64,000 nucleotides of DNA from Phycisphaerae bacterium (GTDB lineage Bacteria; Planctomycetota; Phycisphaerae; WQYP01): contig DATJSN010000092.1 of the NCBI GenBank assembly GCA_035504095.1, positions 68,845 to 132,844 of the forward strand, given 5' to 3'. The translations under genes were made by a program, and so were the position numbers. This document shows, piece by piece, positions 22,460 through 43,789 of the stretch; position 1 is the stretch's first letter; every line of letters begins with the position of its first letter. The notes under the pieces are model-generated. The model did no database searches. It was not told the DNA's origin and saw only the letters and a program-made list of their open reading frames with translations.

Positions 22460-22675
22460 ACTTCAATCCCTTGGTTTTAATCGAGTTGGTACCAGCGGCC
22501 AAGTGAGGGATGGTAGGAATGCGTTAAACATGCCAAGGTTTCACTGCAAATATCAATTTCAACAGATGCTGAAAACCATAAATGCAGTGAAATGTGCGCC
22601 AAAACGCAATTATATTCTTAATAATAAATTACTTGTTCATTATATGGTTATTCGTAGGATATACTCGTTCGGCGT

Positions 22676-22711
22676 GCGATCTGGCGCTGACTGATGTTGC
22701 GGGACGGTAAC
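22676..22711 (+). repeat. 36-bp direct repeat (copy 2) flanking the AbiE module
   Basis: See copy 1. Confidence 0.6.
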
Positions 22712-22843
22712 AATAACAAAGCCACACATAGCGATAGCGACAATTTAAGGTTTGTGTAGCTAAGACGTGATTTTCAGGCCCAGCGCCTTTAAAATATTGG
22801 AGCTTAAGCCAGCATTTTTAAAAGTAGACGATAGGACATCACG

Positions 22844-23314
22844 ATGGCCTTCTCGGTTTTCATCAGTTATTCCACAAACGATCTGGCCAACGCAAAGGCC
22901 TTAAGCTCTTGGGTCAAGGCAGCAGGCGCACAGCCGTTTCTTGCCGAGTATTCGTTGTCGCCCGGCCAACCGTTGGCGTCAGGCATATTGGCAGCGATTC
23001 GAAACTGTAATTTATTTCTGCTCTTGTGGACTGGCAACGCGCGTAACTCGGAATGGGTGCCTCAAGAGATCGGGATTGCAAAAGGCGCAGGCAAAGACAT
23101 TCTTCCAATTGTTCTGCAACGGGGGCTTACGCTGCCCGGTTTCATCAAGGACCTTAAGTACCTCGCCGTTTACAACGATCAGACAGCTACGATTCAATGG
23201 TTGTATCAACATCTGACGGGCAAGGTCAAGCAAAAGGAGGAAATCGAAAAAGTGGTTGCGGGCGGCATTGTCGGCGCGATTCTCCTTCTGTTGGCCGTGG
23301 CTAGCAAGTCCTAA
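22844..23314 (+). CDS. TIR-domain protein with C-terminal transmembrane helix
   Basis: FISYSTNDLANAKAL TIR N-terminus and C-terminal VVAGGIVGAILLLLAVA hydrophobic helix; 156 aa. Confidence 0.65.
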   Translation: MAFSVFISYSTNDLANAKALSSWVKAAGAQPFLAEYSLSPGQPLASGILAAIRNCNLFLLLWTGNARNSEWVPQEIGIAKGAGKDILPIVLQRGLTLPGFIKDLKYLAVYNDQTATIQWLYQHLTGKVKQKEEIEKVVAGGIVGAILLLLAVASKS

Positions 23315-23515
23315 CTAAGACATGATTTTCATGCCTAGCACTTTTAGAAGATGCTGAAGCTTGTTACTTCCCATCGACTTCCGGCGATGCAGATAATCGT
23401 AAATGTGCCGCTGGCTGATCTTTCCGTCTACTGCCTGGCCAAGTGAGTAAGAGTTTAACCCCAGCTTTTCCACCTTAGCGATCACTGCTTCCTGGATTTC
23501 GTCTTTTTGACTCAT
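23315..23515 (-). CDS. small XRE/Cro-like DNA-binding protein
   Basis: 66 aa; last gene of the ArdC-AlpA operon. Confidence 0.35.
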   Translation of the reverse strand: MSQKDEIQEAVIAKVEKLGLNSYSLGQAVDGKISQRHIYDYLHRRKSMGSNKLQHLLKVLGMKIMS

Positions 23516-23530
23516 GGGTACGATTATACT

Positions 23531-23824
23531 TCATTCTTTTTTTATCCGCTCCCACTTATCGCGCGACGGTGCTCCAGCAGCCAACCAGTCGCGTAGCTCG
23601 TCGATGAGCCAGAGATGACGCCGCGCGATCCAAAAACCTAGCGGCGTCTGGCCAGCCGAAAACTGTGCCAGCCAAGTAGAGCGTGAAATGCCGCATAGTT
23701 TTGCGGCATCAGCAGCCCCAACGGCCAGCGGGGTGATAGGGCTGGCTTGTGGTGTGGCGGTTACGGTGCTAACGGTTTCATCGGGACCGCAGCGTTGGGT
23801 CCGTTTTTCGAGATTACTTGCCAT
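23531..23824 (-). CDS. AlpA/excisionase-family helix-turn-helix protein
   Basis: AKLCGISRSTW...WIARRHLW. Confidence 0.5.
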   Translation of the reverse strand: MASNLEKRTQRCGPDETVSTVTATPQASPITPLAVGAADAAKLCGISRSTWLAQFSAGQTPLGFWIARRHLWLIDELRDWLAAGAPSRDKWERIKKE

Positions 23825-23898
23825 GCTATTTCACCACGCTGCGCCAGAGTCGGGCACGACACATGTCCGGCTCAGGCCCCTATTGTTCAAGTTATTCC

Positions 23899-24876
23899 TT
23901 ACGCTGCAATCGCTTCCGGCTGCTGTTCCGTTGCGACAGCCGCGCCATGCTGGCCAGTGATCCAGTCAGCGGCCTTCTGTGCCGCACCTGCCGCGACTAC
24001 GGCAAGCCGATTGTTGCCGCGTAGAACCTTGATCCATGAGCCGATATAGGCGGCCTGGTTCTCAATGGTCGCTGGCTGAATGCCAGCCCGAGCGCACAGA
24101 TACGCGGCTGACATTTCGGCGATCAACTCTTCACGTACATATTCCGGCGTCTCATGCCCCGTCGGTTTCATCCCGTCTTTGCGATCAAGACGTGTGAAAT
24201 GTCCCGTAGAATGCGCCAACTCGTGAAATAGCGTTGCGTAGTAAGCTTCCGGTGAGACAAACCGTGTAGGCTCCGGGATCAAAACCTTATCTAGCGATGG
24301 CCGATACAACGGGGCGAGGCCGCCATGCTCAATTGTCGGTGCGTTGTCGTACCCTTTGACGATTGCTTCCGCATTTTCAATTGGCGAAAACAAAGTCGGC
24401 TTATATTCGCTGGCATCCGGCGCCGCGATACCTTCGCACTGGTCAACATTGAACACGTTGTAGTAACGCAGCATCGGCACTGTGTCAGGCTCTCCGGTCT
24501 GGCGGTCTACAATCGCCAATTGCTTCCAGAAGATAACCATTGACGATTTTTCACCCTTTTTTACCGAGCCGCCGCGTTCTTTTGCCTGATTGAACGTCAA
24601 CCAGTAAGACGAGACATAACCCTTGCAATACGCCGCAATGTTCAGCGTGAACACGTTCAGGCCGCGATACCCTTTGCCAGTGTTTAGGTTTTTCGGCCAG
24701 CCTGTCTCGCCGCGCCCTAGCACTGGATGACGCCAGGGAACCACGCCTTTTTCAAGCATGGCGACTATCTGATCCGTTACTGTTTGGCACAAATCGAATC
24801 TACTCATTGATGCATCCTCACTATCCCGACGACCGGTCGGCGCGGGCAATCGAACAAATTGGATCGCTAAAGACAC
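23899..24876 (-). CDS. ardC: ArdC-family antirestriction protein (ssDNA-binding N-domain plus HExxH zincin domain)
   Basis: N-terminus DQIVAMLEKGVVPWRHPV and C-terminal FHELAHSTGH. Confidence 0.75.
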   Translation of the reverse strand: MSLAIQFVRLPAPTGRRDSEDASMSRFDLCQTVTDQIVAMLEKGVVPWRHPVLGRGETGWPKNLNTGKGYRGLNVFTLNIAAYCKGYVSSYWLTFNQAKERGGSVKKGEKSSMVIFWKQLAIVDRQTGEPDTVPMLRYYNVFNVDQCEGIAAPDASEYKPTLFSPIENAEAIVKGYDNAPTIEHGGLAPLYRPSLDKVLIPEPTRFVSPEAYYATLFHELAHSTGHFTRLDRKDGMKPTGHETPEYVREELIAEMSAAYLCARAGIQPATIENQAAYIGSWIKVLRGNNRLAVVAAGAAQKAADWITGQHGAAVATEQQPEAIAA

Positions 24877-25214: not shown

Positions 25215-26579
25215 ATGATACTTGCAATCGTTGAGAACAACAGCCCAGCAATAGCGCTTTTAATTGTGGTAGGCATAGCCGTTCTCGGAAATACTTTATT
25301 GCGTGGATCCAGACTACTATTTAGGAAGTTGAGCGGTTGGAAGGCATTGACACAAAGATTCCCCGTGAAAATTATCCATATGTCCGGCGAGAAATACAGA
25401 GCACATGGAGAGTGTGTCAACTTTAGATTTCGCCACAGCGGCCTATATAAACCGTACCTAATTGAGCTTGCACAAGAAGGCCTTTTAGTCACGGCCAGTT
25501 TCGCTTCAGGCTCGCCAATATTTATTCCCTGGTCTAGTGTCGGCGGTGTTAGCGTGATCGATCTAGATCATTTGGGGACGGCAGTTGGGGTGACTGTGGA
25601 CTATGAAAAAATAATGCGTTTCGAGCTTCCCAATGCCGCACTGACCACCATTCAAAAAAATATTCTTGCAGAACGATTCCAAAAAGTAACGAGTTCTCCA
25701 TTATCTACTGTCTCACTATTCGAGACGAGAAATGCACCAACAATAGAAAAAGACGAACCCACAAAAAGCGTAACGAGAAACCAACCAACGACGGCAGGGC
25801 AAACCTTAATCACCAAACCGAAAATTGCTCCAACTTCAACCAGCCCTGGCAATTTACCAGTTACGATTTCTGAATGGCAATCTGCTACTGATCAACTAGC
25901 CGGAATTAATGAAAGCACTTGGATTCCTTCAAAAGGGTATGCCAATAATTCCCAGAATGTTAATAATGTATACAAATTCTATCAAACCATATACGAGGCG
26001 AATCCTAATCTTTTGTGGGCCGGTCTGGCTGCTGTGGCTGGTAGTAATGATGTACTGTGGACATTGAAGATACTGAATTCACTCGCCGTCTATGATCCAA
26101 CTGATGATCTTCCCATTACTGAAGACACGCTTCTAACTATGCAACAGAACATTTACAAAGACCTTGCTTGGCAACAAGTGGCATATCAGTTTGGTAGGAT
26201 CGATGCAGTCACAAACATTTATCTAAGTGGTGGAATAACGCCAGAAAATTATCAAACATGGCTGAAAATAGATAATGGCATCCAGACAGGTATTAGCAAG
26301 CAAATCGTAACTGGCAATTATGAACTGCTCTATAGGGAACAATTCATGATTGTCACCCCAGGATATGTAAAACTCAGGAACCTTCCCTTCCCAGTCCCAT
26401 CTGTCGTGGAGGATTTATTTGTATCAAATCCAATTCCAGGAGGTGCGCAATTTGATGGCGATATAACTGATTTCCAACAACGAATGTCTTGGATGGGTGA
26501 TCAGGTATTTTATCCATTTAGTCAGATGTCTCCAGGCGACCGTTTAAATCTTGTCGCAAAACCAATTATGAATCAGTAG
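25215..26579 (+). CDS. hypothetical membrane-anchored protein (N-terminal TM, Thr/Pro-rich linker, C-terminal globular domain)
   Basis: 454 aa in a very AT-rich segment; no family recognised. Confidence 0.4.
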   Translation: MILAIVENNSPAIALLIVVGIAVLGNTLLRGSRLLFRKLSGWKALTQRFPVKIIHMSGEKYRAHGECVNFRFRHSGLYKPYLIELAQEGLLVTASFASGSPIFIPWSSVGGVSVIDLDHLGTAVGVTVDYEKIMRFELPNAALTTIQKNILAERFQKVTSSPLSTVSLFETRNAPTIEKDEPTKSVTRNQPTTAGQTLITKPKIAPTSTSPGNLPVTISEWQSATDQLAGINESTWIPSKGYANNSQNVNNVYKFYQTIYEANPNLLWAGLAAVAGSNDVLWTLKILNSLAVYDPTDDLPITEDTLLTMQQNIYKDLAWQQVAYQFGRIDAVTNIYLSGGITPENYQTWLKIDNGIQTGISKQIVTGNYELLYREQFMIVTPGYVKLRNLPFPVPSVVEDLFVSNPIPGGAQFDGDITDFQQRMSWMGDQVFYPFSQMSPGDRLNLVAKPIMNQ

Positions 26580-26648
26580 AGGACAGAAGACAGGATATTC
26601 AGCGAAATTTACCGTACAGAAAAATATGTAGCGTGTGCGGAAAATTGA

Positions 26649-28286
26649 TCAGATAATTTTTAACCATGATACCTCAACATCATCAAATTCTTCTGATAAA
26701 CTAAGAAAAGCCGGTAGACAAGCTCCACATTTCTCTCCTAGATTTTTATTAAATGCTTCATTGTATGAATCGGCATACAACGTGGAACAAATCAAGGCAC
26801 GTGATGTATGGTATTTTACCTTTTCGCTGTAGAAACCAACGCCACCCAGAACAGTATTAAACCACATTTTAACTGTTTCAGCAAAATTATAAGGAATATT
26901 AAGGCGAGATAATGCCCGAATACAAAGACGCCAACCTTGTCTTTCCTCTTTAATATATTTTGGTCTTCTAAAACGCAAAACACTAGTACCATTGCAATAT
27001 TTGTCCAAATTTGTAATCCTGACATTACCCCCACGAACTAAGCTATCAAATGTGGCTTCTACTACATTGTAACCATCTCCAATATACATGGCGGCATGTG
27101 TCCATTGAGCATCCTGGTCCTTGTAGCCGCCTTTGTTTTGGACTTGACTAATCCACTTTGATACAAAATCATTCACCTTGACATCCCGAACTAAAAGCAA
27201 ATCACCAGCGCACAATTTCTTTGTATCGATTAGCTTTCCAAATTTTCTTGTTGTGTCCGGTAATGCGCGCAAATCGCTAATGGTGCCTTTGCTATCGTTA
27301 TTAGGAAGAAGCTCATGCTGGGTTGGTAGCACAAGTGCTGTCGAATCTGGTAAAGCGATTTTCACAAGTTCATTACAGGGAATACATTTTTTTAAGCATT
27401 GTGCAATTATTTCCTCTAGTTCCTTTAGTTCCTTGCTCTCGTCTGATAATACATTCGCTTTGTTGTTAAAGTGTTTAATAAACTCTTCTTGCATAGCATT
27501 GACCAACGAACGCCGCGTCGTGTTCAATGTTATTTTCGGCATATTAATCCCACTGATTTTATTACCAATATAATTTTTAGGAATAGTTCCGCCAATCTCT
27601 TTTGAGGTTTCACTGTGCAAGTTATTGAAATCAATTGCATATTTAGGGTGCTTATCTACAATCAAAACATCTTTAATAAACGGCGCTTCCTTTTGGAGTA
27701 ATGGCTTTATGTTTTCTACCATATCTTTACTCATGTGAAGCTGAGATTTGATTGGCGAATCATTACAAAATAAAACCACGTCATTATTTATGTGTGATTT
27801 TAAAGTCGGTAGATCAATAATAAGTTCTGATATCGCGCCACTGTAATTAAGGAATTTCGTATCCGATCCATATTTCTGTTTGGCATCATCCAATGCTGGT
27901 GCTTTATCTTGTTGTGGACGTAGGTATACTTTTCGAATATTTCTTCTTTGTCCGGTAGTTCTTTTGATTTTAACGCCGGTAACTTTACCAGACTTTGAGT
28001 CTATAGAATATGATACAGGCGTATTGGCGCGGAGATGCAATTTAGTGAAGGACTGACCTCGGTAGTTTTCAATTGCTTCCGGCGTGAAAACTAAAGTCTT
28101 ACCTTCTGGAGTTGAAATATAAACTAATGATCTACCGGATATCCGTTCAACAACACCATTCAATCTAATTCCATCAGTTTGTCCAGCCGCCCCAACTATA
28201 TTCTTTTTAGTACTCGGCATATTGCACCCCTTAAAACTCCAAGCGAATTTACCGTTACCATAGTTTTCTACGTAGTCTATCGCCAC
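26649..28286 (-). CDS. hypothetical protein with C-terminal permuted papain-like (His-then-Cys; YiiX/C92-like) putative hydrolase region
   Basis: 545 aa. WTHAAMYIGDGYNVVEA followed by ALICSTLYADSY; AT-rich. Confidence 0.35.
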   Translation of the reverse strand: MAIDYVENYGNGKFAWSFKGCNMPSTKKNIVGAAGQTDGIRLNGVVERISGRSLVYISTPEGKTLVFTPEAIENYRGQSFTKLHLRANTPVSYSIDSKSGKVTGVKIKRTTGQRRNIRKVYLRPQQDKAPALDDAKQKYGSDTKFLNYSGAISELIIDLPTLKSHINNDVVLFCNDSPIKSQLHMSKDMVENIKPLLQKEAPFIKDVLIVDKHPKYAIDFNNLHSETSKEIGGTIPKNYIGNKISGINMPKITLNTTRRSLVNAMQEEFIKHFNNKANVLSDESKELKELEEIIAQCLKKCIPCNELVKIALPDSTALVLPTQHELLPNNDSKGTISDLRALPDTTRKFGKLIDTKKLCAGDLLLVRDVKVNDFVSKWISQVQNKGGYKDQDAQWTHAAMYIGDGYNVVEATFDSLVRGGNVRITNLDKYCNGTSVLRFRRPKYIKEERQGWRLCIRALSRLNIPYNFAETVKMWFNTVLGGVGFYSEKVKYHTSRALICSTLYADSYNEAFNKNLGEKCGACLPAFLSLSEEFDDVEVSWLKII

Positions 28287-29259: not shown

Positions 29260-30171
29260 TTGTTCATGAATCTTTTTTCCCGTAAGAATCAACCAAAGCC
29301 AGACACATACCAGTACACGTTCCCTAGTAATGTTCGTAGTCGAATTCTCCTGACCTTCGCAGGCTTTTATGAGAACAACTATGATGGGTCTTCTTTTCGA
29401 TCACTCTTAGATGACGTAGCCCCAATACTTGCGAGAGAGTATGGAGGTTTAATGGGGGGCGACCAAATGGCGTCCCCTAGTCACGACCACCATCCAGTGA
29501 TCTTACACTTGTCATATTGCTCCGACCCGCAAGTGATTGATTTCATAACTATCGCTTTCCGGTCATGGAACTATAGGGCAGGACAGCACGGTGTGGATGA
29601 GATCAATCGCATTCTTCGAGAAGAATCTATTGGATACGAGTTCACACAGTACGTTGAACGAGAAGTACTTAGCCAAGATTCCAGTGGAAGAACAAGAAGA
29701 CTTATCGAATACGATTACCCAGAGGTGATCGTTAAGCACGAAGAATATGCCCATGAAAGCATTGTCAAGCCTTGTCTCAGCGTACTTGCCAATCCAGTGT
29801 TCAAGGTTGCTAACGATGAGATGTTGAAGGCACACGAACATATTCGGAAGAATAACTTGGATGATGCTATAACGTGTTGCGGAGCGGCGTATGAGAGCGT
29901 CATTAAGACGGTTCTCGATAAGAAGGGGTGGACATATGACGCCAAGAAGGATACGTGTGCCACGTTAGTGGACATCTGCGTAAGGGAGGGCTTACTGCCC
30001 GGATTCTGTGCCGATGCATTTAAGGCACCCGGTCGCTTCCGAAACAACCTAAGTTCAGCACACGGACGAGGTCCAACACCACTCCATGTCGCCGACCTCG
30101 AACACGTCGATTATATGATTCAGCTTTCATCTGCCAATATAATATTCCTAGTGAAATTGGCGAAATTCTGA
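29260..30171 (+). CDS. hypothetical protein with C-terminal HEPN-like R-x6-H motif (AbiJ-like architecture suspected)
   Basis: RNNLSSAHGRG near the C-terminus; first gene of a plus-strand block ending in the STAND NTPase. Confidence 0.3.
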   Translation: MFMNLFSRKNQPKPDTYQYTFPSNVRSRILLTFAGFYENNYDGSSFRSLLDDVAPILAREYGGLMGGDQMASPSHDHHPVILHLSYCSDPQVIDFITIAFRSWNYRAGQHGVDEINRILREESIGYEFTQYVEREVLSQDSSGRTRRLIEYDYPEVIVKHEEYAHESIVKPCLSVLANPVFKVANDEMLKAHEHIRKNNLDDAITCCGAAYESVIKTVLDKKGWTYDAKKDTCATLVDICVREGLLPGFCADAFKAPGRFRNNLSSAHGRGPTPLHVADLEHVDYMIQLSSANIIFLVKLAKF

Positions 30172-30203
30172 AGCGCTGGCAAAAGCAAATAGACTGGTAT
30201 TTC

Positions 30204-30776
30204 ATGGCAATTTTCTATCGTGGCGCTGGCATTGGAACTTGGTGGCACAAACACGGTCCTGGCCCAAAAGGCTGGAAAGCGCATTCACCCTATATGGAAG
30301 CTAGCGAAACACGCTTAATGAACCACATTGCAGAAGGCAGCACTGCCAGCCCTTTCATATCTTTAACGCGCTCGTATGGCGTTGCGTTAAACTATGCTCG
30401 TAATTCTGGCTTGAGTCGCCCCAATCGTAGGCGCCGTGCATTCGTTTGGGAAATCGAGCTTGAAGAACCTCTTCCGGATGGCTTGCGTTTACATGACCCT
30501 GTAAAAAGGATTGCCAACCATGTTCCACATCCCCTCGCAACTATTCCGTACCAGCACAATGGTGCACCGACCTGCCTCATCGGTTTGATTGATATAACAC
30601 AAGAGAAACTTCTCGCGCAGATATGTCCTGTGCCACCTAATTCAAATCCACCTTATGGCCCCCCTAATATTTCCCTGGGGCTCAAAACTTTAATCTTCGC
30701 ATTGAGAGACGCGGAAGTTCTCGCTACAGGAGTAATACCCAAAGAATGTGTACGCCGTCGATACGATGTTTTTTAA
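30204..30776 (+). CDS. hypothetical protein with R-S-E ADP-ribosyltransferase-like motif arrangement
   Basis: FYRG (residue 5-8), FISLTRS (~50), EIELEE (~83), spaced as in C3/iota-type ARTs. Confidence 0.3.
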   Translation: MAIFYRGAGIGTWWHKHGPGPKGWKAHSPYMEASETRLMNHIAEGSTASPFISLTRSYGVALNYARNSGLSRPNRRRRAFVWEIELEEPLPDGLRLHDPVKRIANHVPHPLATIPYQHNGAPTCLIGLIDITQEKLLAQICPVPPNSNPPYGPPNISLGLKTLIFALRDAEVLATGVIPKECVRRRYDVF

Positions 30777-30789
30777 TGGACTGATTAAA

Positions 30790-33700
30790 ATGGCTTCTAT
30801 GAGCAAAATCCGCACAATTAAACTGACAGGGTCACTCGGACCGTTGACTTTCCTGAGGGTCGAACTGACAAACGACGCGAGCAACGATTTTGCGATTATC
30901 CGCTACTCTCTTTCGGGGAAGGAGCAAACGGGAGGCTTAAGGCTCGATCTCAATAAACGTACCTTCTTAGATTTGACAGGCGTTGCGGCGGTTGATACCC
31001 AACTTCCTCAAATCGCGCTCCAAGTCCTTAATGCCATTGGAGACAGAGGTAAACATCGCACTCGAAGACCGCCTTACGTGGTCAAAATGCGCGAACCGAT
31101 CACTTCCGAGCGATTCCAACCGCTTTCAACTGGCGCAAAAACAAAAACATTTCTTGGCTTTGACTCTACATCGTTATCTCGTCTTGCAACGAAAGAGACA
31201 ATTGAATTATTTAGAAAAATGTTGTGGTGTTCTGCACGCCGTCATTCGTTGCCTATCCAATCGATCACGATCTCATTAAATGTAAACGCGCCAGATGGCG
31301 GTATCGATGCGTGTGTCGCACCCAACACGATTAATACGGATCAAGACTTATTGATCTCAGGGAATTCATATTTTCAGATCAAAGCTGGCGACTCTTCGAC
31401 CCCATGGCAAAAGTCGTGGCTTCAAAAGGAACTCTTTGGTAATGTTAAAAAGCATTCCAAAGCAGCACTAGGTAAGGCCGTCCAGAATTGCCTTGCGCAT
31501 AATGGCCGATACGTCATTGTTTGTTTCGGAATTGATCCAACCGATTCACAGCGTAGAAAAAGCATCAAATATTTGCGGGAATTATTTGCTGCTTGTGGCT
31601 ACAAACATGCACAAGTTGACGTGTGGGGGCAGGGAACACTGGCGGGTCTTATTCATCAGTTTCCATCAATAGAATTGCAGTTGTCCAACCGCCATCAATT
31701 ACCGTTTTCGACCCACGATGAATGGAAACTCGATTCTGAGATGGGGCGATCATTGCACCTAGGCAATGCTCAAAAAGAAATCATTGATGTAATTCGTAAT
31801 TGTCTACGTGGAACTGAAGTTTACCATGTGCGATTGATCGGTGAGCCTGGATTGGGTAAAACGCGCTTGGCACTCCAAGCGTTATCCGCTGAAGACTTGG
31901 CTCCAACTGTAATTTATGTGCGACACCCCGAAGATTTTCAACAAGGGCCACTGTTCAATGAGATACTTCGTGCCGACAATATATCTTCTATGACGCTTGT
32001 CATAGACGATTGCTCTGAAAAAGAACGAGCTTCGATCTGGAATGTTCTACGGCAACGAAGAGATCGCATTCGTCTCATTACCCTTGACCAAGGGCCAGAA
32101 AAATCTGCCGACGACTTAATGCAAGTATTCGAGTGCCCCGCTCTTGATAAGGAGCAAATAAAGGCAATACTCGCTGAATATATCGGTATGAATCCAGATA
32201 CAAATCGATGGATTGATTTTTGTTCAGGATCACCGCGTGTGGCTCATGCCGTAGGTGAAAATCTTCGTAGGAATCCTGATGATGTCCTTAAGCCAACAGC
32301 AACTGTACCTCTTTGGGAACGCTTCATTCAAGGAAATAGTAAAACTGGAAGCCAGGATGAATCTGAGAAAGAAACCGCTCTTAGGCACATTGCATTATTT
32401 CACAAATTTGGTTTTGAGCATCCTGTAGATGGGGAAGCCAAATTCATTTCGAGCATGATCGAGATTGCAAATCCGGCAATCACGTGGCAACGATTCCAGT
32501 CGATCATTAAGGATTTCCGTGATCGCCGAATTCTACAAGGCAAAACAACCCTCTTCATAGTACCCAAACTTTTACACATTTATTATTGGTGCCAATTTTG
32601 GGAACACTACGGGCCGGGGACGGACATCAGCAACTTGATTTCTCGTATGCCGCAGTCGCTGTTTCGCTGGTTTACCGAGATGTTCAAATACGGCCATGTA
32701 TCACAGAGTTGTCTCACTCGCATCGAGATTATTACTTCGTCAGGTGGTCCATTCGATAAACGAGAGTTTCTCATTTCTGGTCAAGGCTGTGTATTCCTAA
32801 ACGAGCTGGCTGAAGCGAATCCGGAGGCGACACTTCGTTGCCTTGAACGAACGATAGGCAATTGGTCACGTAAAGAGCTATTCGAACTTAGGCAAAGTCG
32901 TCAATACCTTGTATGGGCGTTGGAGAAAATCGCAATATGGAAGAATTTGTTCCAACGTGCCGCCACGGTATTGCTTAAGTTGGCGTTGGCGGAAAATGCA
33001 CCTAATAGCAACAACGCCATCGGTACTTTCTGCGATCTATTTACAATGGGATATGACCGGTTTGCCAGTTCTGAAGCACCGCCAGAATTGCGGCTACCCG
33101 TGCTGCGCACCGCACTCGAATCATCAGACCATGCGACACGAATGCTCGCATTGAAAGCCATCGACAAGAATTTGGATAACCATCCACACACTAAAATAGG
33201 CTGCCCAGAGTACCAAGGAATGCGTCAGCTTCCTGCGCTCTGGCGTCCCAAGACCTACGGAGAACTATTCAACGCCTATCGTTCTTGCTGGCAACTGGTT
33301 GTCGGATTCCATCGAACTGCGACTGGTGTCGAAAAAACAACGGCAACTAAAGTTATGATTGATGCTGCCTTCGGGTTGGTGCAAAATAGATGGATAGAAA
33401 AAGAGATTTTGGTCACACTCGAAAAACTGGCGGTCGATCCTGAAACAGACTTACGTCCTATCGTCAGGTTAATTTCACGATTTCGCGTTCTTCACTGGAA
33501 GAACCTTAGTAGAAATGCCGCCAAAAAATTGCATGCAATTGACAACAGAATTCGCGGCACAACGATTGAATCTCAGATTAAGCGAATGGTATTGCTGGCC
33601 AACCATGACGATATTGATAGAGGCGAGGGTAGCCAATACGGGAACAAATATAGGAAGAAACTAACACAGCTTGCACGATCAGCAATGTCGCAACCAGAAA

Positions 33701-34929
33701 TATTGAAAGCACTTTTGCCTGATTTATTGTCGCAACAAGAGGGTTTCGCCTTAATTTCATTTGGACAAGCTTGGGGAAATGAAGACCAATCTTTAGAATG
33801 GTGGCCCACTATTCTAGAACAGTTCACAGCATTAGGAGGTCAGCGGAATCCAGAACTGATGGCGGGGTATCTTGGAAGTATATTCAAAAAAAATCGCGAA
33901 AGATGGCAACTTATTGCACTGCAAATATTGGAAGATAGAACACTAGTTCGTTACGCAAAGCAACTGATTCTGGGGTCAGGTATGACCGAAGTTGTAATGA
34001 CAAAGCTGTGTACCGCGATAGAAGGCGGTACAGTTTCGGCAGAAGTACTTAGTCAAATGGGATATTTTGGAAAAGCATACGGCTTATCCACCGAACAACT
34101 AGTGGGGTTTATCAGTTGGTGTGCCAAACAAGGAACATTCGAACTGATGAGTGTCGGCTTAACTGCGGCGTACGCACTCTTCTGCACGGATAAGGATGCT
34201 CCACCAATTCCTGAAAAACCACTTCTCCAACTGCTCACGGCACCCAATGTACTGCATAGTCGTACGCCCGACCTTGCAGATTATGAATGGTCTGAGCTTA
34301 CTAAGCGATTTGTCGAGGCATATCCACAACATTCAATGCGCATAATTGAAAGCGTATTAAATCATTTTGATGATTTTGAGTTTGTGTTAGCCTTCTCACA
34401 TTCACAAGCACAGACGGCGATGCTTGATCTGGTACGTCGTGAACGACACGGGGCATGGTTGGCTGTCATCAACAAATTGAATCTACTTAACGGAACGATC
34501 TCGCACAACCTTCAGCATTGGCTAAACCCCGGCTACAAAGTAGGAGAAAATACCGAATTGGGCGTGTTAAACCTATTTGATATAAATGACATATTGGTTT
34601 GGATAGACGAAGATCCAAAAGTGCGAGCGCCATTCATTGCACGGGTATGTCCAAAAACACTAAACCAACATGAAGGAGGGCGACTGACGCGAGAAATACT
34701 CCACCGTTATGGCGATCAGGCCGAGGTTAAGAATGCTTTATGGGTGAATTTTGGCACAGAAAGCTGGATCGGAAGCGCGAGCAGTCATTATCGAAATAAA
34801 CGCGACCAAATGCGAGAGTGGCTATCCAAAGAAACCGTCACGACAGTTATTCGCTGGTTAGAAGAATACATCGATTACCTGGGTAATGAGATCAAGCGCA
34901 ACGAAATTAGCGAGGAGCGTGAGTATTGA
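30790..34929 (+). CDS. Avs-like antiviral STAND NTPase (N-terminal Mrr-type PD-QxK nuclease domain, P-loop NTPase, C-terminal helical repeats)
   Basis: DGGIDACV...FQIKAG (Mrr_cat-like), Walker A GEPGLGKTRLA, Walker B LVIDDC, ~800 aa of alpha-helical repeats. Start at ATG 30790 chosen to avoid overlap with the upstream gene. Confidence 0.6.
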   Translation: MASMSKIRTIKLTGSLGPLTFLRVELTNDASNDFAIIRYSLSGKEQTGGLRLDLNKRTFLDLTGVAAVDTQLPQIALQVLNAIGDRGKHRTRRPPYVVKMREPITSERFQPLSTGAKTKTFLGFDSTSLSRLATKETIELFRKMLWCSARRHSLPIQSITISLNVNAPDGGIDACVAPNTINTDQDLLISGNSYFQIKAGDSSTPWQKSWLQKELFGNVKKHSKAALGKAVQNCLAHNGRYVIVCFGIDPTDSQRRKSIKYLRELFAACGYKHAQVDVWGQGTLAGLIHQFPSIELQLSNRHQLPFSTHDEWKLDSEMGRSLHLGNAQKEIIDVIRNCLRGTEVYHVRLIGEPGLGKTRLALQALSAEDLAPTVIYVRHPEDFQQGPLFNEILRADNISSMTLVIDDCSEKERASIWNVLRQRRDRIRLITLDQGPEKSADDLMQVFECPALDKEQIKAILAEYIGMNPDTNRWIDFCSGSPRVAHAVGENLRRNPDDVLKPTATVPLWERFIQGNSKTGSQDESEKETALRHIALFHKFGFEHPVDGEAKFISSMIEIANPAITWQRFQSIIKDFRDRRILQGKTTLFIVPKLLHIYYWCQFWEHYGPGTDISNLISRMPQSLFRWFTEMFKYGHVSQSCLTRIEIITSSGGPFDKREFLISGQGCVFLNELAEANPEATLRCLERTIGNWSRKELFELRQSRQYLVWALEKIAIWKNLFQRAATVLLKLALAENAPNSNNAIGTFCDLFTMGYDRFASSEAPPELRLPVLRTALESSDHATRMLALKAIDKNLDNHPHTKIGCPEYQGMRQLPALWRPKTYGELFNAYRSCWQLVVGFHRTATGVEKTTATKVMIDAAFGLVQNRWIEKEILVTLEKLAVDPETDLRPIVRLISRFRVLHWKNLSRNAAKKLHAIDNRIRGTTIESQIKRMVLLANHDDIDRGEGSQYGNKYRKKLTQLARSAMSQPEILKALLPDLLSQQEGFALISFGQAWGNEDQSLEWWPTILEQFTALGGQRNPELMAGYLGSIFKKNRERWQLIALQILEDRTLVRYAKQLILGSGMTEVVMTKLCTAIEGGTVSAEVLSQMGYFGKAYGLSTEQLVGFISWCAKQGTFELMSVGLTAAYALFCTDKDAPPIPEKPLLQLLTAPNVLHSRTPDLADYEWSELTKRFVEAYPQHSMRIIESVLNHFDDFEFVLAFSHSQAQTAMLDLVRRERHGAWLAVINKLNLLNGTISHNLQHWLNPGYKVGENTELGVLNLFDINDILVWIDEDPKVRAPFIARVCPKTLNQHEGGRLTREILHRYGDQAEVKNALWVNFGTESWIGSASSHYRNKRDQMREWLSKETVTTVIRWLEEYIDYLGNEIKRNEISEEREY

Positions 34930-35054: not shown

Positions 35055-36407
35055 TTACGAATAACAGTTTCGTCCGGATACATCATAGCCCAAGGCTTCC
35101 AATACCCGGCAAATTTCGCTCCAAACCACGCCAGGGTACTGTGTCTCAATTTCGTCAATCTGCTTCTGGGTGATCTTATGCATTGATTCGGCGTCTTGTA
35201 CGCCCAGGGCAATCAGTACGGATTTAGTCCTTGGGGTTATGTCAAATTCGTCTAATAGCTTGTTCGTGGGAGGTTTCGCAACTTCAGGCCGGGGCGCCAC
35301 CTTGAACAAAGGGTCAAGAGAGTCGGCATACCAAGAGGCCCACTCAGACCATTCACGGAAATTTCTTTCGTCAATGATTCGCATTTCGCCGGATTCCACA
35401 AACTGATTTATCGCTTTTAGATAGGCGCGGATGCGTTCAGCATAGTGCCATCTGTCAACTTGTACCGCCAAACTTTCCCGTCGCTCCTTTTCTTTTTCAT
35501 TGTGCTGTTGTTTGGCCAATCTTAGTTGTTCAATCGCGTTCTTCTGGCGGGCATGGCATTCATTGTCGAGCCGGTGCCGTTTCCGATTTTCAATCTGAGC
35601 CACCAAGCCGTCGAGGATTCGATTGAGAATCTTCTCCAGTCGCTGATGGGTTCCATCGGCCCAATTCAAACGGAGTCCCTCGCTTTGAAAATTCTCGATT
35701 GAAAAGACCAATCGACCGTTCGGACGACTTGGTGGATACCTACGCAAGCGCCTTTTCTCCGGTGTCCCGTTCGGAAGCGGTTCGGGGAGCTCTTTTAGAC
35801 TCACGAGTACTTCATACGGGCCAATTGCAAATGCCGTGCTGTAATGACCAAGGAAACTTTTGACCCCGAGCTTGACCGATCCGCCGACTTCTTCCCATGC
35901 ACGAATCAACGCATCCATGATTTTCAGGGCGCGGGTGATCGAGTCTGACGCGACCGCGATATTCAACGCTGTTTTAGGGTCGCTATGAACGATGCGATTA
36001 TCATCAGGAGTACCTGCACGAAGTTGTATTCTTGTCTGTTCGACCAGCGCATGCGGTGATAAAAGATGCTCGGAAATTAAGATCGGTGCACGATTCACCG
36101 CCATTTGTCCAGATGCCCCATTGGTCACGGTATCGCCAAAAATCGCCGGCTGAGGGTGAAATTGAACTTTTTGAAGCTGCGGATCAGTTACGACCGGCAG
36201 CGGCGTGCGTTCGATCTGGTAGCCATACTTTCGCTGTGACCAGTACCCCTTCGGAGGACGCGGGATATTATGTCGGCGGCATGCTTTGCCGAGGGCCACA
36301 TCAGAAACGCCGTATTTCCGTGAGAGTTGCGTGCCCGGTACTTCCCAGAGTTCCACATAAAGCGTTTCCCGATCAACGCAATGATTTTCAGTTTGAAGTT
36401 GGGACAT
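35055..36407 (-). CDS. hypothetical protein (N-terminal HTH-like segment)
   Basis: 450 aa, 166 bp downstream of the GHKL operon on the same strand. Confidence 0.35.
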   Translation of the reverse strand: MSQLQTENHCVDRETLYVELWEVPGTQLSRKYGVSDVALGKACRRHNIPRPPKGYWSQRKYGYQIERTPLPVVTDPQLQKVQFHPQPAIFGDTVTNGASGQMAVNRAPILISEHLLSPHALVEQTRIQLRAGTPDDNRIVHSDPKTALNIAVASDSITRALKIMDALIRAWEEVGGSVKLGVKSFLGHYSTAFAIGPYEVLVSLKELPEPLPNGTPEKRRLRRYPPSRPNGRLVFSIENFQSEGLRLNWADGTHQRLEKILNRILDGLVAQIENRKRHRLDNECHARQKNAIEQLRLAKQQHNEKEKERRESLAVQVDRWHYAERIRAYLKAINQFVESGEMRIIDERNFREWSEWASWYADSLDPLFKVAPRPEVAKPPTNKLLDEFDITPRTKSVLIALGVQDAESMHKITQKQIDEIETQYPGVVWSEICRVLEALGYDVSGRNCYS

Positions 36408-36572
36408 AAATACTCTCCTGGTCTACGAAATAAACGGTGCATAAAATGTCCCGGATAAGTTACACGACAATACGGCAGAATTCAGCGAGATTTACCGGGC
36501 GGCGGGCCGAGAAATTGAAGTGCATGCGGAAATTGGTATCATGCTAGTTATGTCCTCATTCCGCTCTGTGAG

Positions 36573-37520
36573 TTAGAGGACAAGCTCAGCATAGGATGGG
36601 AGAAACCGATACACATCGCGGTACCTCTTGATATCCTCAGGTGCTGCTTCAAACGCATCTGGAACCCATTCATCTGCACATGGCATGACACAATCCAAAT
36701 GCAGGCGTTCTTTTCGTGTGAATCGCGGAATTTGTAGTTCACATGGGTCAAAGGAAAATGAAGTTCTGTAGTATATAGTGTTCTCTAAACCGGCGGCGGA
36801 CAATCTCCGTTTCTCATCAGGTGTACAAATCATTCCACCCACGGTGAGCATTGTATGGCCATCTTTGTATACAAAATTGAATATGCGGCAAAATTCAGCC
36901 TCACTCCTCGAACGCATTCCACGACTAATGATATTGTCAAGAATTTGCGTATTGAGTTTAACCATGTTTGATTTTGCAAATGTTGTACTGTCATGCCCGC
37001 GTGGAAGATACTCTGCAACCTCGGTAGCAAAATGCTCTTGCCATTGTTTCGGTCCAGTATCCTCTTTTCCCGGAGGTTCGACATCAACGGTTGTGAGCAA
37101 AAGTGATCCGGTCGTCAGACTACTTAAGGCGGATACAATATCGCGTGCATAATCGGCTCTAATAACTGTGTCATAGTCCAACCAAAGAATGTGCTTTCGG
37201 TCACGAGATAGTTCGGGGATTACTTTGCTAATTGGGGCAATGCGAACCTCAACGTTTCCATAAGGCTTATTGAATTCAACCCGCTTTTTAATTGCACTCG
37301 ATATTTCTACGCTGAGCATTTTCTGAATTCCTAAATACTTATGGAACAACGCGAAGTCGAAGAAGTAGATTGAGCCCATACCGGTATATTGATAGTCGGC
37401 AATAGGAAAACCAGCCGCGATTAGCCGTTGAAAGGCGTCAACCAACATGCGTCGCTCAACCTGTTTCGCTTCGCGAAGATCATATGGAACTTTTCGGTAG
37501 CTTTCGCTAATGGCGTTCAT
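36573..37520 (-). CDS. hypothetical protein, partner of the GHKL ATPase
   Basis: 315 aa; 4-bp overlap with the upstream ATPase gene; no recognisable family. Confidence 0.4.
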   Translation of the reverse strand: MNAISESYRKVPYDLREAKQVERRMLVDAFQRLIAAGFPIADYQYTGMGSIYFFDFALFHKYLGIQKMLSVEISSAIKKRVEFNKPYGNVEVRIAPISKVIPELSRDRKHILWLDYDTVIRADYARDIVSALSSLTTGSLLLTTVDVEPPGKEDTGPKQWQEHFATEVAEYLPRGHDSTTFAKSNMVKLNTQILDNIISRGMRSRSEAEFCRIFNFVYKDGHTMLTVGGMICTPDEKRRLSAAGLENTIYYRTSFSFDPCELQIPRFTRKERLHLDCVMPCADEWVPDAFEAAPEDIKRYRDVYRFLPSYAELVL

Positions 37521-38884
37521 TGGACGCCCTCCTGCTTGAGAAAATAATCGAATGTATAACGGCCAATATCTTTGGGAGGCATGCTAGGGCGCCGTAGGTG
37601 TTCGCGCACCTTTTCTAAGTCTGTAAGATTCACATTGTATCGAACGCTCGCCGTGGTCTTCTGTTTTCGCGGAAGCTTTTCCGGATTAAAGCTGCGGCTT
37701 GGCACTGAAGCAACCTGTCCAAGATCAGCTTGGCTAAGGGAAGTCATTATCTTCCGTTCATCCGAGGTCACTTCTGATTTTGACTGAGATAGACTGTTCA
37801 AGAAAGAATAAACTGGCCTTGCGATACTCGCCATTCGCTCACGAACTCGCAAGAACACAGCAGCTTCACGGTTGAGGCTGCGCTTCGTTGTGGTCCATGG
37901 AAGTTTCAAGGGGTCGCGAGAAGAAAAGGAAGCAATTCCAATGAATCCTCGCGATACACTGGTATGAAATTGTGGAAGAATGCCAGCTCCCCATCCGGTC
38001 AACTCCGTTTTGTCTGCGGCAAGAATTACGCGACCGTTACAGAGAACATACCATCCGGCAGGTTCAGCTCGCCATTCATTGGATTCGCCCCTTGCTGCAA
38101 GTCCAGCGATAAGTGTGATGTGGACGCCTTCCTCATCCCATGTCTCCACGGCGGGCGTGAAATTTTCGGACGCACCAAGTGGGATTAATGTGGGAGAAAT
38201 AGACATTCCGTTGAGAATAATATCGACGTATCGAGTTAAAAATGAAGCATAAGTTTGTGCAATCGAGCGATGCAGTGCAGTTGTTGTTGTCGGATCTCTG
38301 AACAGCGACTGGATGTCAGGGCTGATTCGTGCAATATTGATTGTCGTTCCAGGCTGCTCTGGGGGCATTGCTCCTTCAAGGTGATCCAAGGGAAACCGCC
38401 AGTCATTGAGAGTGTCATCCTTCTGTGACCACTCAGCAACATCCACCTTGACTCGAAATCCGTTAACGGCTGTATGAGATGTCATTTCGAAATGATCGCC
38501 AATCTTAAAAATTGCTCGCTTGAGACCAATTCCATAAGCACCCAGTTGTGTTGTGCCCATATCACCGGCAGGGTGTTCCGCATGGCCAAAATTGAATACT
38601 TCCCGTTCAGCATAAGCTTGGTCAATTCCTCCACAATTGTCCTGAATGGAAAAACCGTCTTTTGTATAACTAACCTGAATTCTAGCCTTAGGCTCGTTGA
38701 TAGGTATTATAGGATTGGTGTTCAACAGGTCCTTTGCGTCGAGATTAAGTTGACGCGACCGAATCAGGCCATCAATGGAATTGTCGATCAAATCTAAAAT
38801 GCAGTCTTGGAGTGAGATGTCTCGCGTGAACATCTCCAAAAAAAACCTCTTACGCGGGAGCGCGAGTGCATATGTGTCGGACAT
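37517..38884 (-). CDS. GHKL-superfamily (MutL/MORC-like) ATPase
   Basis: N-box LDLIDNSIDG, G1 box IQDNCGGID, G2 box GAYGIGLKRAIF. Confidence 0.6.
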   Translation of the reverse strand: MSDTYALALPRKRFFLEMFTRDISLQDCILDLIDNSIDGLIRSRQLNLDAKDLLNTNPIIPINEPKARIQVSYTKDGFSIQDNCGGIDQAYAEREVFNFGHAEHPAGDMGTTQLGAYGIGLKRAIFKIGDHFEMTSHTAVNGFRVKVDVAEWSQKDDTLNDWRFPLDHLEGAMPPEQPGTTINIARISPDIQSLFRDPTTTTALHRSIAQTYASFLTRYVDIILNGMSISPTLIPLGASENFTPAVETWDEEGVHITLIAGLAARGESNEWRAEPAGWYVLCNGRVILAADKTELTGWGAGILPQFHTSVSRGFIGIASFSSRDPLKLPWTTTKRSLNREAAVFLRVRERMASIARPVYSFLNSLSQSKSEVTSDERKIMTSLSQADLGQVASVPSRSFNPEKLPRKQKTTASVRYNVNLTDLEKVREHLRRPSMPPKDIGRYTFDYFLKQEGVQ

Positions 38885-39345
38885 GCTCTGTTCCTTCCAA
38901 TCTCTGGTCAGGCACTAATCAGTATATAGTTACCCGTATTCGCTTCAGCCAACCGTTCTATACCACGTTTCGGAACTAATTCCAGTTGGCAGCAAAACCG
39001 ACACCAACCCTAGTGCACGACCACGATGCTGATCTTTCCGTTGTAGGACTTGTTGGCTAGGTAACCTGCGAAACACCAGCCACTCTTCAATTTTGAAATC
39101 ATTGTCGCTTGTTTGAATCGCCCTGTAAACGGCTAATGCAACGACGGATAATCAGATGCCTGGTTAATAATTCAAAGCGTGCGTGCCGGAATTGGTGGTT
39201 GTCCCTAATAGTTCCAAAAGGTCGCTGTCCAAACCATTTCACACCCTCACGCTTAAACTTGCTTCCTAATCGCACTGATATGGCATATGCCCCGGTAAAT
39301 TGCGGCTGCGTCGAGATCACTGGCGGTCATGATCCTGCAACGATT

Positions 39346-40797
39346 TCATCTTCGAACAACCAAACGATGTCCTTTTAGTGTGACTCCGCGTTGGAGCAAG
39401 ACTTTTTCCCAACCGTTGCGCGTTCCAATTGTTGCGGTATCATCAAAAAGTCTATGCCTTTCTTCTTGTTTGGTAAGATGCTCAAAGCGTTCTCTGCGTG
39501 GATCATCAGGCCCTAGGAATGTTTCCTTGCGATGCAATATGGGTGGGTTTGTTGAGTCCCGGAAGTTCAAGTGCTTTACATCCCCGTTGCTGAGCTTAAG
39601 ACGTAGTGATTCAGCTAGAGCAGGATGAGGATCGGTATTAAACTCTGGATACAGCAGATACGACACTTTTGGCTCAACCCGATTCAACTTGATCAAATTT
39701 GCGCCCTCAACATGACCCAGATAGCTGCGAGCACACCCCTCATAGACGCGGAGTAGAGCTGGCAGATGGGCCAGCGCATCGACATGCACATAAAGGGCTT
39801 CGCCCGTAAGCTTTCCGACCGGTGAATGCTCCATCGAATGATTGAGTTCCGCCATGTTTCCGGTGCGGAAAAGCAGTTTATCACCCTCAACGCAGGCCTT
39901 ATTGTACGTGGAGAAGAATTCTCGCACATCCAATTGCTGGTCCGCCGGTAGCTCGGAGAACCGTGGGCGACCACCAAAGCGGTCCAATGCAAAGTGGATT
40001 AGCAACTCTTCTCGCCGTTCCTGCTGTAACTGCTCCCAACGCTCTGCCCCAGTGACGCGCCGAACAACCGCGAATGCTTTCGGCACACTGCCGAAGATTT
40101 CAGCAAGTTGACCATGAACGGGGAATTCTTCAGGTGCAGGCAGCCGTCCGCGATCAGCCACAAATTCCATCAATGGCATGAGCAGATTCTCATGCTGTTG
40201 GAACAGAATGTCGCTCATCCGTGGAACAGGCACCGCCCGATGTCGCCTATACCTAGCTTCTAGGAACCGCTGGCGCAATTCTTCATCGCGGAAAATAAAG
40301 AAAATTCCTGGCGCAGCAGCCAAGGCACGTTGCACCAAGACCTGCTCCAACCAGTCCCGTAGCTCAAGTTGGTTGAAGAATTTCTGAAAAGTTCCGCGAC
40401 CGGTTAGACACCCATCGGCATATGACTCGAACCTCGCCTCCTTGGCCTCGTATACGAGCCGAGCTGAAACAATCAACAGTTTCTTGGCCAAGTCCCATGC
40501 TGATCGCACGACATTGGCCCGTTCTTCTACATTTTCGATAACATTGACTACATAACCCAAGTTCACTACGTCCGCAGATATTCGGGGTGCCTGGGGTTGA
40601 TGGACGGGGTCCCAGCCCGCCGCTTGAAATCCAGAGTCCGCAAGGTTACGCAAATCGTCGCCGCGCCCGCAACCATAGTCGAAAACGGTCGTTTCAAAAT
40701 GGATTAAATGCGACTCCAGGGCCGCACGGAAGGGCTTTGATAGTCCGGCGCGTCCGATAGCCGTTTTGTGACGATGAATTTGAGGCACGTTCGACAT
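39346..40797 (-). CDS. DNA phosphorothioation-associated putative SAM-dependent methyltransferase
   Basis: VFDYGCGRGDD motif I. ATG at 40797 preferred, since the longer ORF to 41004 would overlap divergent dndA. Confidence 0.55.
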   Translation of the reverse strand: MSNVPQIHRHKTAIGRAGLSKPFRAALESHLIHFETTVFDYGCGRGDDLRNLADSGFQAAGWDPVHQPQAPRISADVVNLGYVVNVIENVEERANVVRSAWDLAKKLLIVSARLVYEAKEARFESYADGCLTGRGTFQKFFNQLELRDWLEQVLVQRALAAAPGIFFIFRDEELRQRFLEARYRRHRAVPVPRMSDILFQQHENLLMPLMEFVADRGRLPAPEEFPVHGQLAEIFGSVPKAFAVVRRVTGAERWEQLQQERREELLIHFALDRFGGRPRFSELPADQQLDVREFFSTYNKACVEGDKLLFRTGNMAELNHSMEHSPVGKLTGEALYVHVDALAHLPALLRVYEGCARSYLGHVEGANLIKLNRVEPKVSYLLYPEFNTDPHPALAESLRLKLSNGDVKHLNFRDSTNPPILHRKETFLGPDDPRRERFEHLTKQEERHRLFDDTATIGTRNGWEKVLLQRGVTLKGHRLVVRR

Positions 40798-40910
40798 GTT
40801 ACATTCGAATTTCCAAAACAAAGCCGACGGTCCATGTTTCGAGCAAGCGCAAGGCTGCATTGCAACAGCCTGCCATTGGCTCAGACAACAGTATGTCATA
40901 GGATGTCGGC

Positions 40911-43273: not shown

Positions 43274-43276
43274 GGA

Positions 43277-43783
43277 TCAATGCGAAAATATTTTGGCTAA
43301 AGCATGACGAACCGAAGCTGGAAATTTGTGATTAGAAGGTGGTAAATATGCTGCGAGCAAGGCATTTTCCACTTTTTTTATGTCTTTTCTTTTGTGTATT
43401 ACAGCATAGTAAAACCATAAATAGCCATCCCATTTGTCCAGCATCTCAACCACATGCAGCCGTCGAGACAAGTCGCCTCTTTTTTTATCACTTAAATACT
43501 GAGAAAACCGATCACGAAGCATTTGCCTCTCCGTCATACCGACGTACATAAGATAAGAACAACTAGGGTGGCGGGCGATTCCCGGCTTTATTATAAACGT
43601 ATAAACACCTCCCGCATTGTTGGGCACGTAATTACTCTTCGTAGATTCAAACTTAACATAATGCCACTTCAGTTTTGATCGCAACTTGTAACTGCACCAA
43701 TGTGAAGGAGAAAGCACCATCCTTGTCAATTTATAATCATTGAGTTTGTACTTAGAGGTTTGTCTGCTAAAAATATCGTCCAT
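43277..43783 (-). CDS. small GIY-YIG-like putative nuclease
   Basis: GVYTF...YVGMT...R...E...N spacing resembles GIY-YIG. Confidence 0.3.
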   Translation of the reverse strand: MDDIFSRQTSKYKLNDYKLTRMVLSPSHWCSYKLRSKLKWHYVKFESTKSNYVPNNAGGVYTFIIKPGIARHPSCSYLMYVGMTERQMLRDRFSQYLSDKKRGDLSRRLHVVEMLDKWDGYLWFYYAVIHKRKDIKKVENALLAAYLPPSNHKFPASVRHALAKIFSH

Positions 43784-43789
43784 GCAAAT

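Follow-up and report, generated by a model that had tools for sequence, protein, structure and literature searches.

An Avs8-like STAND gene of a Phycisphaerae genome that appears to use an undescribed module of ADP-ribosyltransferase and docking domain

The sequence analysed here (the window) is a stretch of 64,000 nucleotides (nt) from a Phycisphaerae bacterium metagenome-assembled genome (GTDB lineage Bacteria; Planctomycetota; Phycisphaerae; WQYP01; NCBI GenBank assembly GCA_035504095.1, contig DATJSN010000092.1, positions 68,845 to 132,844 of the forward strand), and the element under study is a block of three plus-strand genes, g1, g2 and g3, at positions 29,260 to 34,929. The locus appears to be a variant of an Avs-type sensor that uses an apparently undescribed module, made of a predicted ADP-ribosyltransferase (ART) encoded by g2 and of a putative docking domain, called X, at the start of the STAND protein encoded by g3. 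About an even chance is given to the reading that g2 and g3 form a two-part system built on this portable ART-X module, g1 being a stacked neighbour. The three open reading frames (ORFs), their gaps of 32 and 13 nt and their motifs were found as an initial annotation of the window had described them. That annotation had wavered between one multi-component system and three genes stacked together; judging from synteny across about 88 related loci, each option holds in part, g2 and g3 being linked and g1 apparently independent. The features of the block are as follows (all on the plus strand; aa, amino acids; AF2, AlphaFold2).

29266..30171, plus: g1, AbiJ-type protein (AbiJ_NTD4 + DUF7014/HEPN), 301 aa from ATG, 303 aa from an alternative TTG at 29260
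30040..30063, plus: HEPN R-x6-H motif of g1, RNNLSSAH, aa 259-266 (family alignment)
30204..30776, plus: g2, predicted R-S-E type mono-ADP-ribosyltransferase, 190 aa (AF2 model, Foldseek, homologue conservation)
30213..30224, plus: g2 motif 1, F-Y-R6-G, with the NAD-binding Arg (homologue alignment)
30360..30377, plus: g2 motif 2, S53-L-T55-R-S57-Y, STS-type, SLTRSY (homologue alignment)
30450..30458, plus: g2 motif 3, E83-I-E85, catalytic ExE (homologue alignment)
30790..34929, plus: g3, X + Mrr-like nuclease + STAND NTPase + helical sensor, 1379 aa from ATG
30808..31038, plus: X domain, about aa 7-83 of g3 (tblastn, iterated profile, alignments, AF2)
31168..31700, plus: Mrr-like PD-(D/E)xK nuclease, approximate bounds (PADLOC PD-Lambda-4_A alignment begins at aa 127)
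31291-31311, plus: Mrr motif PDGGIDA, aa 168-174 (three-way alignment)
31372-31389, plus: Mrr motif FQIKAG, FQIK at aa 195-198 (three-way alignment)
31780..32600, plus: STAND P-loop NTPase, approximate bounds (weak Pfam AAA_22/NB-ARC matches)
31840-31863, plus: Walker A motif GEPGLGKT, aa 351-358 (three-way alignment)
31996-32013, plus: Walker B motif LVIDDC, aa 403-408 (three-way alignment)
32601..34926, plus: C-terminal helical repeat-like sensor region, approximate bounds (full-length homology to single-gene relatives in cyanobacteria and haloarchaea)

Two alternative starts exist for g3, a GTG at 30748 (1393 aa) and an ATG at 30799; the latter leaves a gap of 22 nt and fits the N-termini of the homologues slightly better.

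The g2 gene and its partner domain X

The g2 gene and X form an obligate adjacent pair. When g3 was compared by tblastn with the loci collected by means of g2, only its residues 3-107 matched, always just 3' of the g2 homologue. These N-terminal matches served to seed an iterated hidden Markov model (HMM) of 83 positions, with which X was found to open the ORF directly 3' of g2, on the same strand, in loci L001-L084 except L053 and L057. In these two, a shortened X stands ahead of a TIR/SEFIR-STAND protein, with an E-value of 2e-6 in L053 and recognisable by eye only in L057. Similarly, X scored 3' of g2 in all three loci of the closest g2 relatives (L085-L087), and the sole viral locus (L088) likewise carries g2 and then X. 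The window itself holds exactly one g2 and one X, and the X HMM matches the downstream gene only, never g2.

The reverse search, seeded with X, was conducted on metagenome contigs. A single X sequence used as query returned nothing from a large protein index, whereas an alignment query matched; for the metagenome scan, alignment A2 was too divergent and its subset A4 gave matches. Among the 41 loci having an intact X and enough upstream sequence, g2 was intact in 34, fragmented in six (L095, L104, L112, L119, L141 and L149) and absent in one (L103). A lost or broken g2 beside an intact X was thus found in 7/41 loci vs. 0/87 for a broken X beside an intact g2 (Fisher p = 2e-4), the 41 and 87 loci coming from different collections and some cases, such as L119, being possible assembly errors. 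A decayed toxin beside an intact partner is the typical asymmetry of toxin/antidote pairs. Also, the distances between g2 sequences and those between X sequences co-vary, with a Mantel r of 0.63 vs. 0.21 for the best of 999 permutations.

As for X itself, it appears from its sequences to be a previously undescribed partner domain of about 85 aa, dedicated to the ART. Its AF2 model (predicted local distance difference test, pLDDT, of 68) has four or five beta-strands followed by a helix, and its motif reads G-x-EQ...GLRLDL(D/N)K-x-F. G43 and K56 are invariant, and D53, Y39, E45, Q46 and F59 are nearly so. Precomputed Pfam domains were lacking in all but one of 120 X homologues.

Concerning g2, its labelling as ART-like in the initial annotation was borne out by structure comparison. 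The AF2 model (pLDDT of 84.5) was searched with Foldseek against the PDB, and the top 34 matches were all to cholera toxin A1, E. coli PltA, pertussis toxin S1 or CARDS toxin (probability of about 1, E-values from 3e-3 up, template modelling scores of 0.43-0.51); a viral DarT fragment and ModA were weak fold matches. The catalytic set R / H / S-x-T-x-S / E-x-E is present in canonical order: R6, H41, S53 and S57 were found in 120/120 homologues, E83 in 116/120 and E85 in 117/120. Since these residues are conserved across the homologues, g2 is very probably an active R-S-E enzyme. Modelled fold and alignments together indicate a new small family inside the cholera/pertussis-toxin-like ART group. 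It shares with cholera toxin, pertussis toxin and PltA the fold and the order of the catalytic residues, but g2 is a small cytoplasmic protein with no evident signal peptide and no secretion or B-subunit context, it has no sequence-level match to them, and its family carries the further invariant motifs YQHxG and LRDAE.

No above-threshold membership was found for g2 in curated ART sequence families (Pfam toxin families and profile libraries), and PADLOC did not match it. Its weak profile match is DUF7587 (18.7 bits for a cut-off of 27), a sub-threshold match common to the 27/27 family members tested; a weak Scabin-like match (E-value of 0.14) was found in two of these 27. No mention of DUF7587 was found in the literature searched, a search which was not exhaustive. 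When g1, g2 and g3 were compared by sequence with the PDB, no significant match was obtained. The g2 family is small, with 357 representatives (50% identity level) in a set of 1.84 billion proteins. Candidatus Poribacteria, whose genomes often carry 2-3 copies, are where it is concentrated; further members were found in Acidobacteriota, Planctomycetota, Rhodothermales, Chthoniobacterales and one Methylobacterium. The idea of g2 as a phage gene was rejected, with a single match in 2.9 million viral contigs.

The g3 body and the other carriers of X

The initial annotation had presented g3 as an Avs-like protein with an Mrr-type N-terminus. The Avs-like character and the Mrr nuclease stand, but the nuclease is not at the extreme N-terminus: about 125 residues precede it, and these contain the X domain, which had been missed. 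PD-Lambda-4_A was the sole PADLOC family to match g3, with no further Avs/AVAST model at E<=1 (E-value of 4.3e-28, 95.5 bits), residues 127-1090 being aligned on profile positions 9-989 of 1283; the match is distant, and PADLOC supplies no cut-off for this model. Profile classification therefore places the STAND protein with Avs8/PD-lambda-4_A and not with Avs1-4.

Full-length relatives of the g3 body were found on plasmids, one from Pseudanabaena (31% identity) and others from haloarchaea (Haloarcula). They are single genes without X and without an upstream ART, they begin near g3 residue 110, and the Pseudanabaena protein also matches PD-Lambda-4_A, reaching the end of the profile. In the three-way alignment, D169, G170, G171, D173, Q196, I197 and K198 are invariant for Mrr, G351, G354, G356, K357 and T358 for Walker A, and D406 for Walker B. 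Because the profile aligns from residue 127 only and the closest relatives lack X, the domain is regarded as an add-on, and g3 is, on these alignments, best described as an Avs8-like STAND protein that gained X, its STAND body being a distant member or a relative of Avs8.

PD-lambda-4 (Vassallo 2022, PMC9519451) has been renamed Avs8 (bioRxiv 10.1101/2025.07.02.662641). Avs8A, which combines an Mrr nuclease, a STAND NTPase and a repeat sensor, recognises major capsid proteins of the HK97 fold by binding and is sufficient for defence (bioRxiv 10.1101/2025.07.02.662641; PMC13581612), its operon partner Avs8B being dispensable in E. coli (bioRxiv 10.1101/2025.07.02.662641). With this system, g3 shares the profile match, an intact Mrr D...QxK motif and intact Walker A and B motifs. 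It differs by its extra N-terminal X, by the upstream ART gene, by the distant relationship and by the absence of an Avs8B homologue, PD-Lambda-4_B having matched neither g1 nor g2 nor the flanking gene.

X is portable, being found as a free protein and also in fusion with, or next to, unrelated defence proteins. It is mostly a free protein of about 100-125 aa (typically about 110), encoded just 3' of g2, and in many loci housekeeping genes follow X on its 3' side. Among the larger partners, FRG-TPR (PADLOC PDC-S15) is fused to X in L001, L013, L034, L037 and L047 and is a separate gene in L044 and L058. ApeA_NTD1 + HEPN_Apea occurs with X in L003, L043, L085 and L086, bSEFIR/TIR-STAND-TPR in L053 and L057, and an X-associated LRR-Roc protein with a ThsB-like TIR in L087. 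A type III Res subunit is fused to X in L018 and separate in L005, L010, L012 and L035; the Res subunits with X match PADLOC REase_III (532 and 483 bits) and fall into two different Res families. In the Poribacteria type III restriction-modification operons, Mod lies directly 5' of the ART, so that the order is Mod-ART-X-Res; where separate, X is a 109-aa gene located 14 nt 5' of Res. The coordinates of these operons are:

L018: 4800-12107, Mod-ART-X/Res fusion
L010, L005, L012: Mod about 4505-7627, g2 8001-8576, X 8643-8972, Res 8987-12127
L035: 3392-11581, Mod-ART-X-Res

In 17 Poribacteria loci, X bears an extension of about 110 aa. Their arrangement, seen at L060 (7195-9274) and 16 other loci (e.g. 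L063, L067, L074-L079, L084), is an ORF of 267-289 aa followed by the ART and the extended X, with a gap between ORF and ART that is often just 2 nt; neither the ORF nor the extension had a Pfam or PADLOC match. The viral locus L088 (IMG/VR UViG_3300010051_000081, 1881-9695) has an ART at 3314-3892 and, at 3896-6193, a 765-aa fusion of X to a GTP-dependent phosphoenolpyruvate carboxykinase (PEPCK). This pair lies between tail tube and tape-measure genes.

The synteny of the two small genes of the block, left as a check by the initial annotation, separates them: g2 is linked through X, not to STAND genes as such, and g1 is unlinked. For g2 as for X, the sequences nearest to those of the window come from the ApeA-fused and LRR-Roc-fused loci. 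This sharing of the same closest loci suggests that ART and X moved together and were joined by recombination to different C-terminal bodies.

As described, an Avs/STAND sensor is one polypeptide chain with an effector of its own. The Avs8-like sensor of the window would have gained a putative docking domain for a separately encoded ART, and in other phyla this ART-plus-dock pair is found on restriction enzymes, on HEPN RNases and on TIR/STAND proteins. With slightly less than even confidence, ART and X are seen as an undescribed portable plug-in that serves six or more unrelated defence machines (Avs8-like STAND, bSEFIR-STAND, LRR-Roc-TIR, ApeA HEPN, type III Res and FRG-TPR), either as a second, ADP-ribosylating effector arm released by the sensor or as an ADP-ribosylation switch that gates their effectors. 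If so, ADP-ribosylation would form a layer of control or output common to prokaryotic NLR-like and restriction systems. A functional coupling would provide a new modular route by which bacterial immune systems acquire or gate an effector, together with a new ART toxin family and a partner domain of a so far unmatched fold. In the most relevant surveys, within a search that was not exhaustive, pairing of an ART with STAND, with ApeA or with type III Res was not found described.

Proposed mechanism and competing explanations

The mechanism considered here, which we hold about as probable as not, is that of a g2-g3 system in which X docks and restrains the ART and releases it on sensor activation, g1 being separate. 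By analogy with toxin/antidote pairs, or with AriA holding AriB, X would bind the ART and keep it inactive. The C-terminal sensor of g3 would bind a phage protein, which by analogy with Avs8A may be an HK97-fold capsid protein. The STAND protein would then oligomerise, switching on the Mrr nuclease and releasing or activating the docked ART, and the infected cell would be hit twice, by DNA cleavage and by NAD-dependent ADP-ribosylation of an essential target. We infer the binding of X to the ART, as well as the inhibition, the release, the ART target and the phage trigger.

Toxin/antidote or sensor-held-effector logic is favoured for several reasons. Free two-gene pairs are the majority, so that the pair must have a function of its own; multiple copies are present per Poribacteria genome; g2 decays beside an intact X, the reverse never being seen in the samples; and no eraser enzyme accompanies the pair. 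As in DarTG and CmdTAC, an ART is encoded beside a small cognate partner in a phage-defence context, and the toxin-first order matches that of DarTG. The partner differs: X is neither a macrodomain, as DarG is, nor the disordered antitoxin plus SecB-like chaperone of CmdTAC (PMC11618068), and, unlike these partners, it is modular and fused to other immune proteins. With PARIS, where AriA sequesters AriB, g2-g3 would share the principle that a sensor NTPase controls an effector encoded by another gene, though neither g2 nor g3 is related in sequence to AriA or AriB. Systems based on effector-associated domains (EADs) are alike in placing a small adaptor between NTPase and effector; there the coupling is homotypic, NTPase and effector each bearing a copy of one domain (Kaur et al. 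2020, PMC7159879). An adaptor of this type was ruled out, since the X HMM finds no X in g2.

Several points weigh against the proposed mechanism. The decay asymmetry rests on two collections, and the fragmented g2 of L119 may be an assembly error. With type II toxin-antitoxin systems, g2 and X share adjacent, obligately co-occurring small genes, but X lacks the DNA-binding autoregulatory domain of the classical antitoxins, as seen from the near absence of Pfam domains (one in 120) and from a fold search of the PDB that gave no significant match; moreover, a toxin gene in first place is the rarer order. The PD-Lambda-4_A match of g3 is distant (95 bits), so that its capsid trigger is only an analogy. 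The fusion of X to an Avs8-like protein was seen in this window only, without an independent replicate. Finally, the fusion of X to the metabolic enzyme PEPCK in L088 suits recruitment or regulation better than an antidote role.

This last point belongs to the main rival explanation, regulatory ADP-ribosylation, which is considered possible but clearly less probable. X would be a docking or acceptor tag bringing the ART to any protein that bears it (STAND, Res, ApeA or PEPCK), and the ART would modify X or the X-bearing protein so that it is held off or primed, in a way comparable to DraT on nitrogenase or Cap2 on CD-NTases. The effector would be switched when this modification is lost during infection. 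The fusion of X to many unrelated proteins, a non-toxic enzyme included, would fit such a role, as would the insertion of ART-X between Mod and Res of type III systems, where control of Res is plausible; the invariant G43 and K56 and the near-invariant D53, E45 and Q46 of X could include an acceptor residue. Against this, most modules are free ART and X pairs that lack an output domain in their surroundings, and in the loci inspected a conserved eraser (macrodomain or ARH) was not found with the pair. Nor does the family alignment of X show an invariant Arg, the residue that cholera-toxin-like ARTs usually modify.

It is also conceivable, if unlikely, that the fusion in g3 is incidental, g2-X being an autonomous toxin-antitoxin or addiction cassette that inserts into defence islands, its antitoxin gene having fused to the next gene, and the STAND protein working alone, so that the block would hold three independent systems. 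The nearest relatives of g3 are single genes, E. coli Avs8A is sufficient alone with a dispensable operon partner (10.1101/2025.07.02.662641), and the housekeeping genes 3' of X in many loci point the same way. What makes this explanation less likely is the repeated independent association with defence proteins: X is fused to, or lies tightly beside, members of six or more unrelated families and of two different Res families, the one module is found both fused and split, and nearly every X of the clade nearest to the window is fused to a large effector.

The AbiJ-type gene and the genomic setting

The HEPN-like label given to g1 was confirmed. Pfam matches were obtained for AbiJ_NTD4 (residues 2-127, 3.3e-10, 41.1 bits for a cut-off of 34) and DUF7014 (residues 180-297, 1.5e-11, 44.8 bits for a cut-off of 27), together with an NCBIfam match to the STM4504/CBY_0614 family (6e-32) whose score of 111 is under the cut-off of 150. 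CBY_0614 is the prototype of the AbiJ-NTD4 + AbiJ HEPN architecture (Anantharaman et al. 2013, PMC3710099). The R-x6-H motif, RNNLSSAH, aligns with the family signature RN...GHGxG, and N261, H266, G267 and G269 are invariant in the family alignment. With AbiJ, g1 shares both its two-domain architecture and a HEPN motif of the R-x(4-6)-H type; it differs in being about 27-28% identical to the enterobacterial and Exiguobacterium members and by an insertion and a short deletion beside the motif. Its family was found in 334 plasmid records, including a stand-alone gene on E. coli pAPEC-1.

No g1 homologue was found next to g2 in the approximately 88 related loci, the sole match in its vicinity (L025) being about 2 kb off and on the opposite strand. 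The genes 5' of the g2 homologues are heterogeneous and unrelated to g1. The recurrent 267-289 aa gene found 5' of g2 in Poribacteria and in L057 was considered as a g1 analogue and rejected, these genes being mutually unrelated and unrelated to g1. Because of the missing g1-g2 linkage and the stand-alone occurrence of the family on plasmids, g1 is taken, on homology and synteny, to be an ordinary independent single-gene AbiJ-type system, outside the ART-X system. A single three-component system, with the AbiJ-like protein, the ART and the STAND protein as subunits, would agree with the common strand, with the short spacing (32 and 13 nt) and with the lack of a convincing promoter or terminator between the genes. 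It is nevertheless highly improbable, being largely refuted by this synteny. The scan for promoters and terminators gave counts at chance level and is uninformative on co-transcription. A DNA search with the whole block found no match in E. coli genomes or in plasmids.

The block is located in a lower-GC island at about 25-50 kb of the window. This is a defence island on an integrative element, as indicated by AbiEii, TIR, ArdC, an AlpA-like regulator, an Ssp/Dnd-like set, PrimPol and an integrase at tRNA-Leu. Upstream of the block, the AbiEii, TIR and ArdC genes at 20749-24876 are hallmarks of a conjugative or integrative element:

20749-21828, minus: AbiEii nucleotidyltransferase toxin
22844-23314, plus: small stand-alone TIR protein
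23899-24876, minus: ArdC with PolyVal metallopeptidase

The lowest GC of the window (0.38-0.42) is found at 25215-28286, where each strand has one large gene: that of the plus strand codes for 454 aa, and that of the minus strand, of 545 aa, had a weak Peptidase_C92 match only. Downstream of the block, a possible further defence operon occupies 35055-41004 on the minus strand, none of whose genes is matched by PADLOC:

35055-36407, minus: 450-aa gene
36573-37520, minus: Methyltransf_35, overlapping the GHKL gene
37517-38884, minus: GHKL/HATPase_c_3 (MORC-like)
39346-41004, minus: 552-aa methyltransferase-domain protein

It is followed by an Ssp/Dnd-like phosphorothioation gene set at 40911-48654:

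40911-42041, plus: SspA/DndA cysteine desulfurase
42038-43273, minus: DndB-like
43790-45277, minus: DndH/mad8-like ATPase
45293-47362, minus: SMC-like AAA_23
47359-48654, minus: PAPS-reductase-like gene

At the far end of the window, two very large minus-strand ORFs, at 55376-59725 (1449 aa) and 60550-63990 (1146 aa), had no Pfam match at E<=0.001. Between the phosphorothioation set and these ORFs lie two further genes:

49937-51931: PrimPol-AAA_25 primase/helicase
53132-54664: tyrosine integrase ORF, which runs into tRNA-Leu(taa) at 54558-54642

The integrase/tRNA-Leu(taa) site is likely the boundary or the attachment site of the island.

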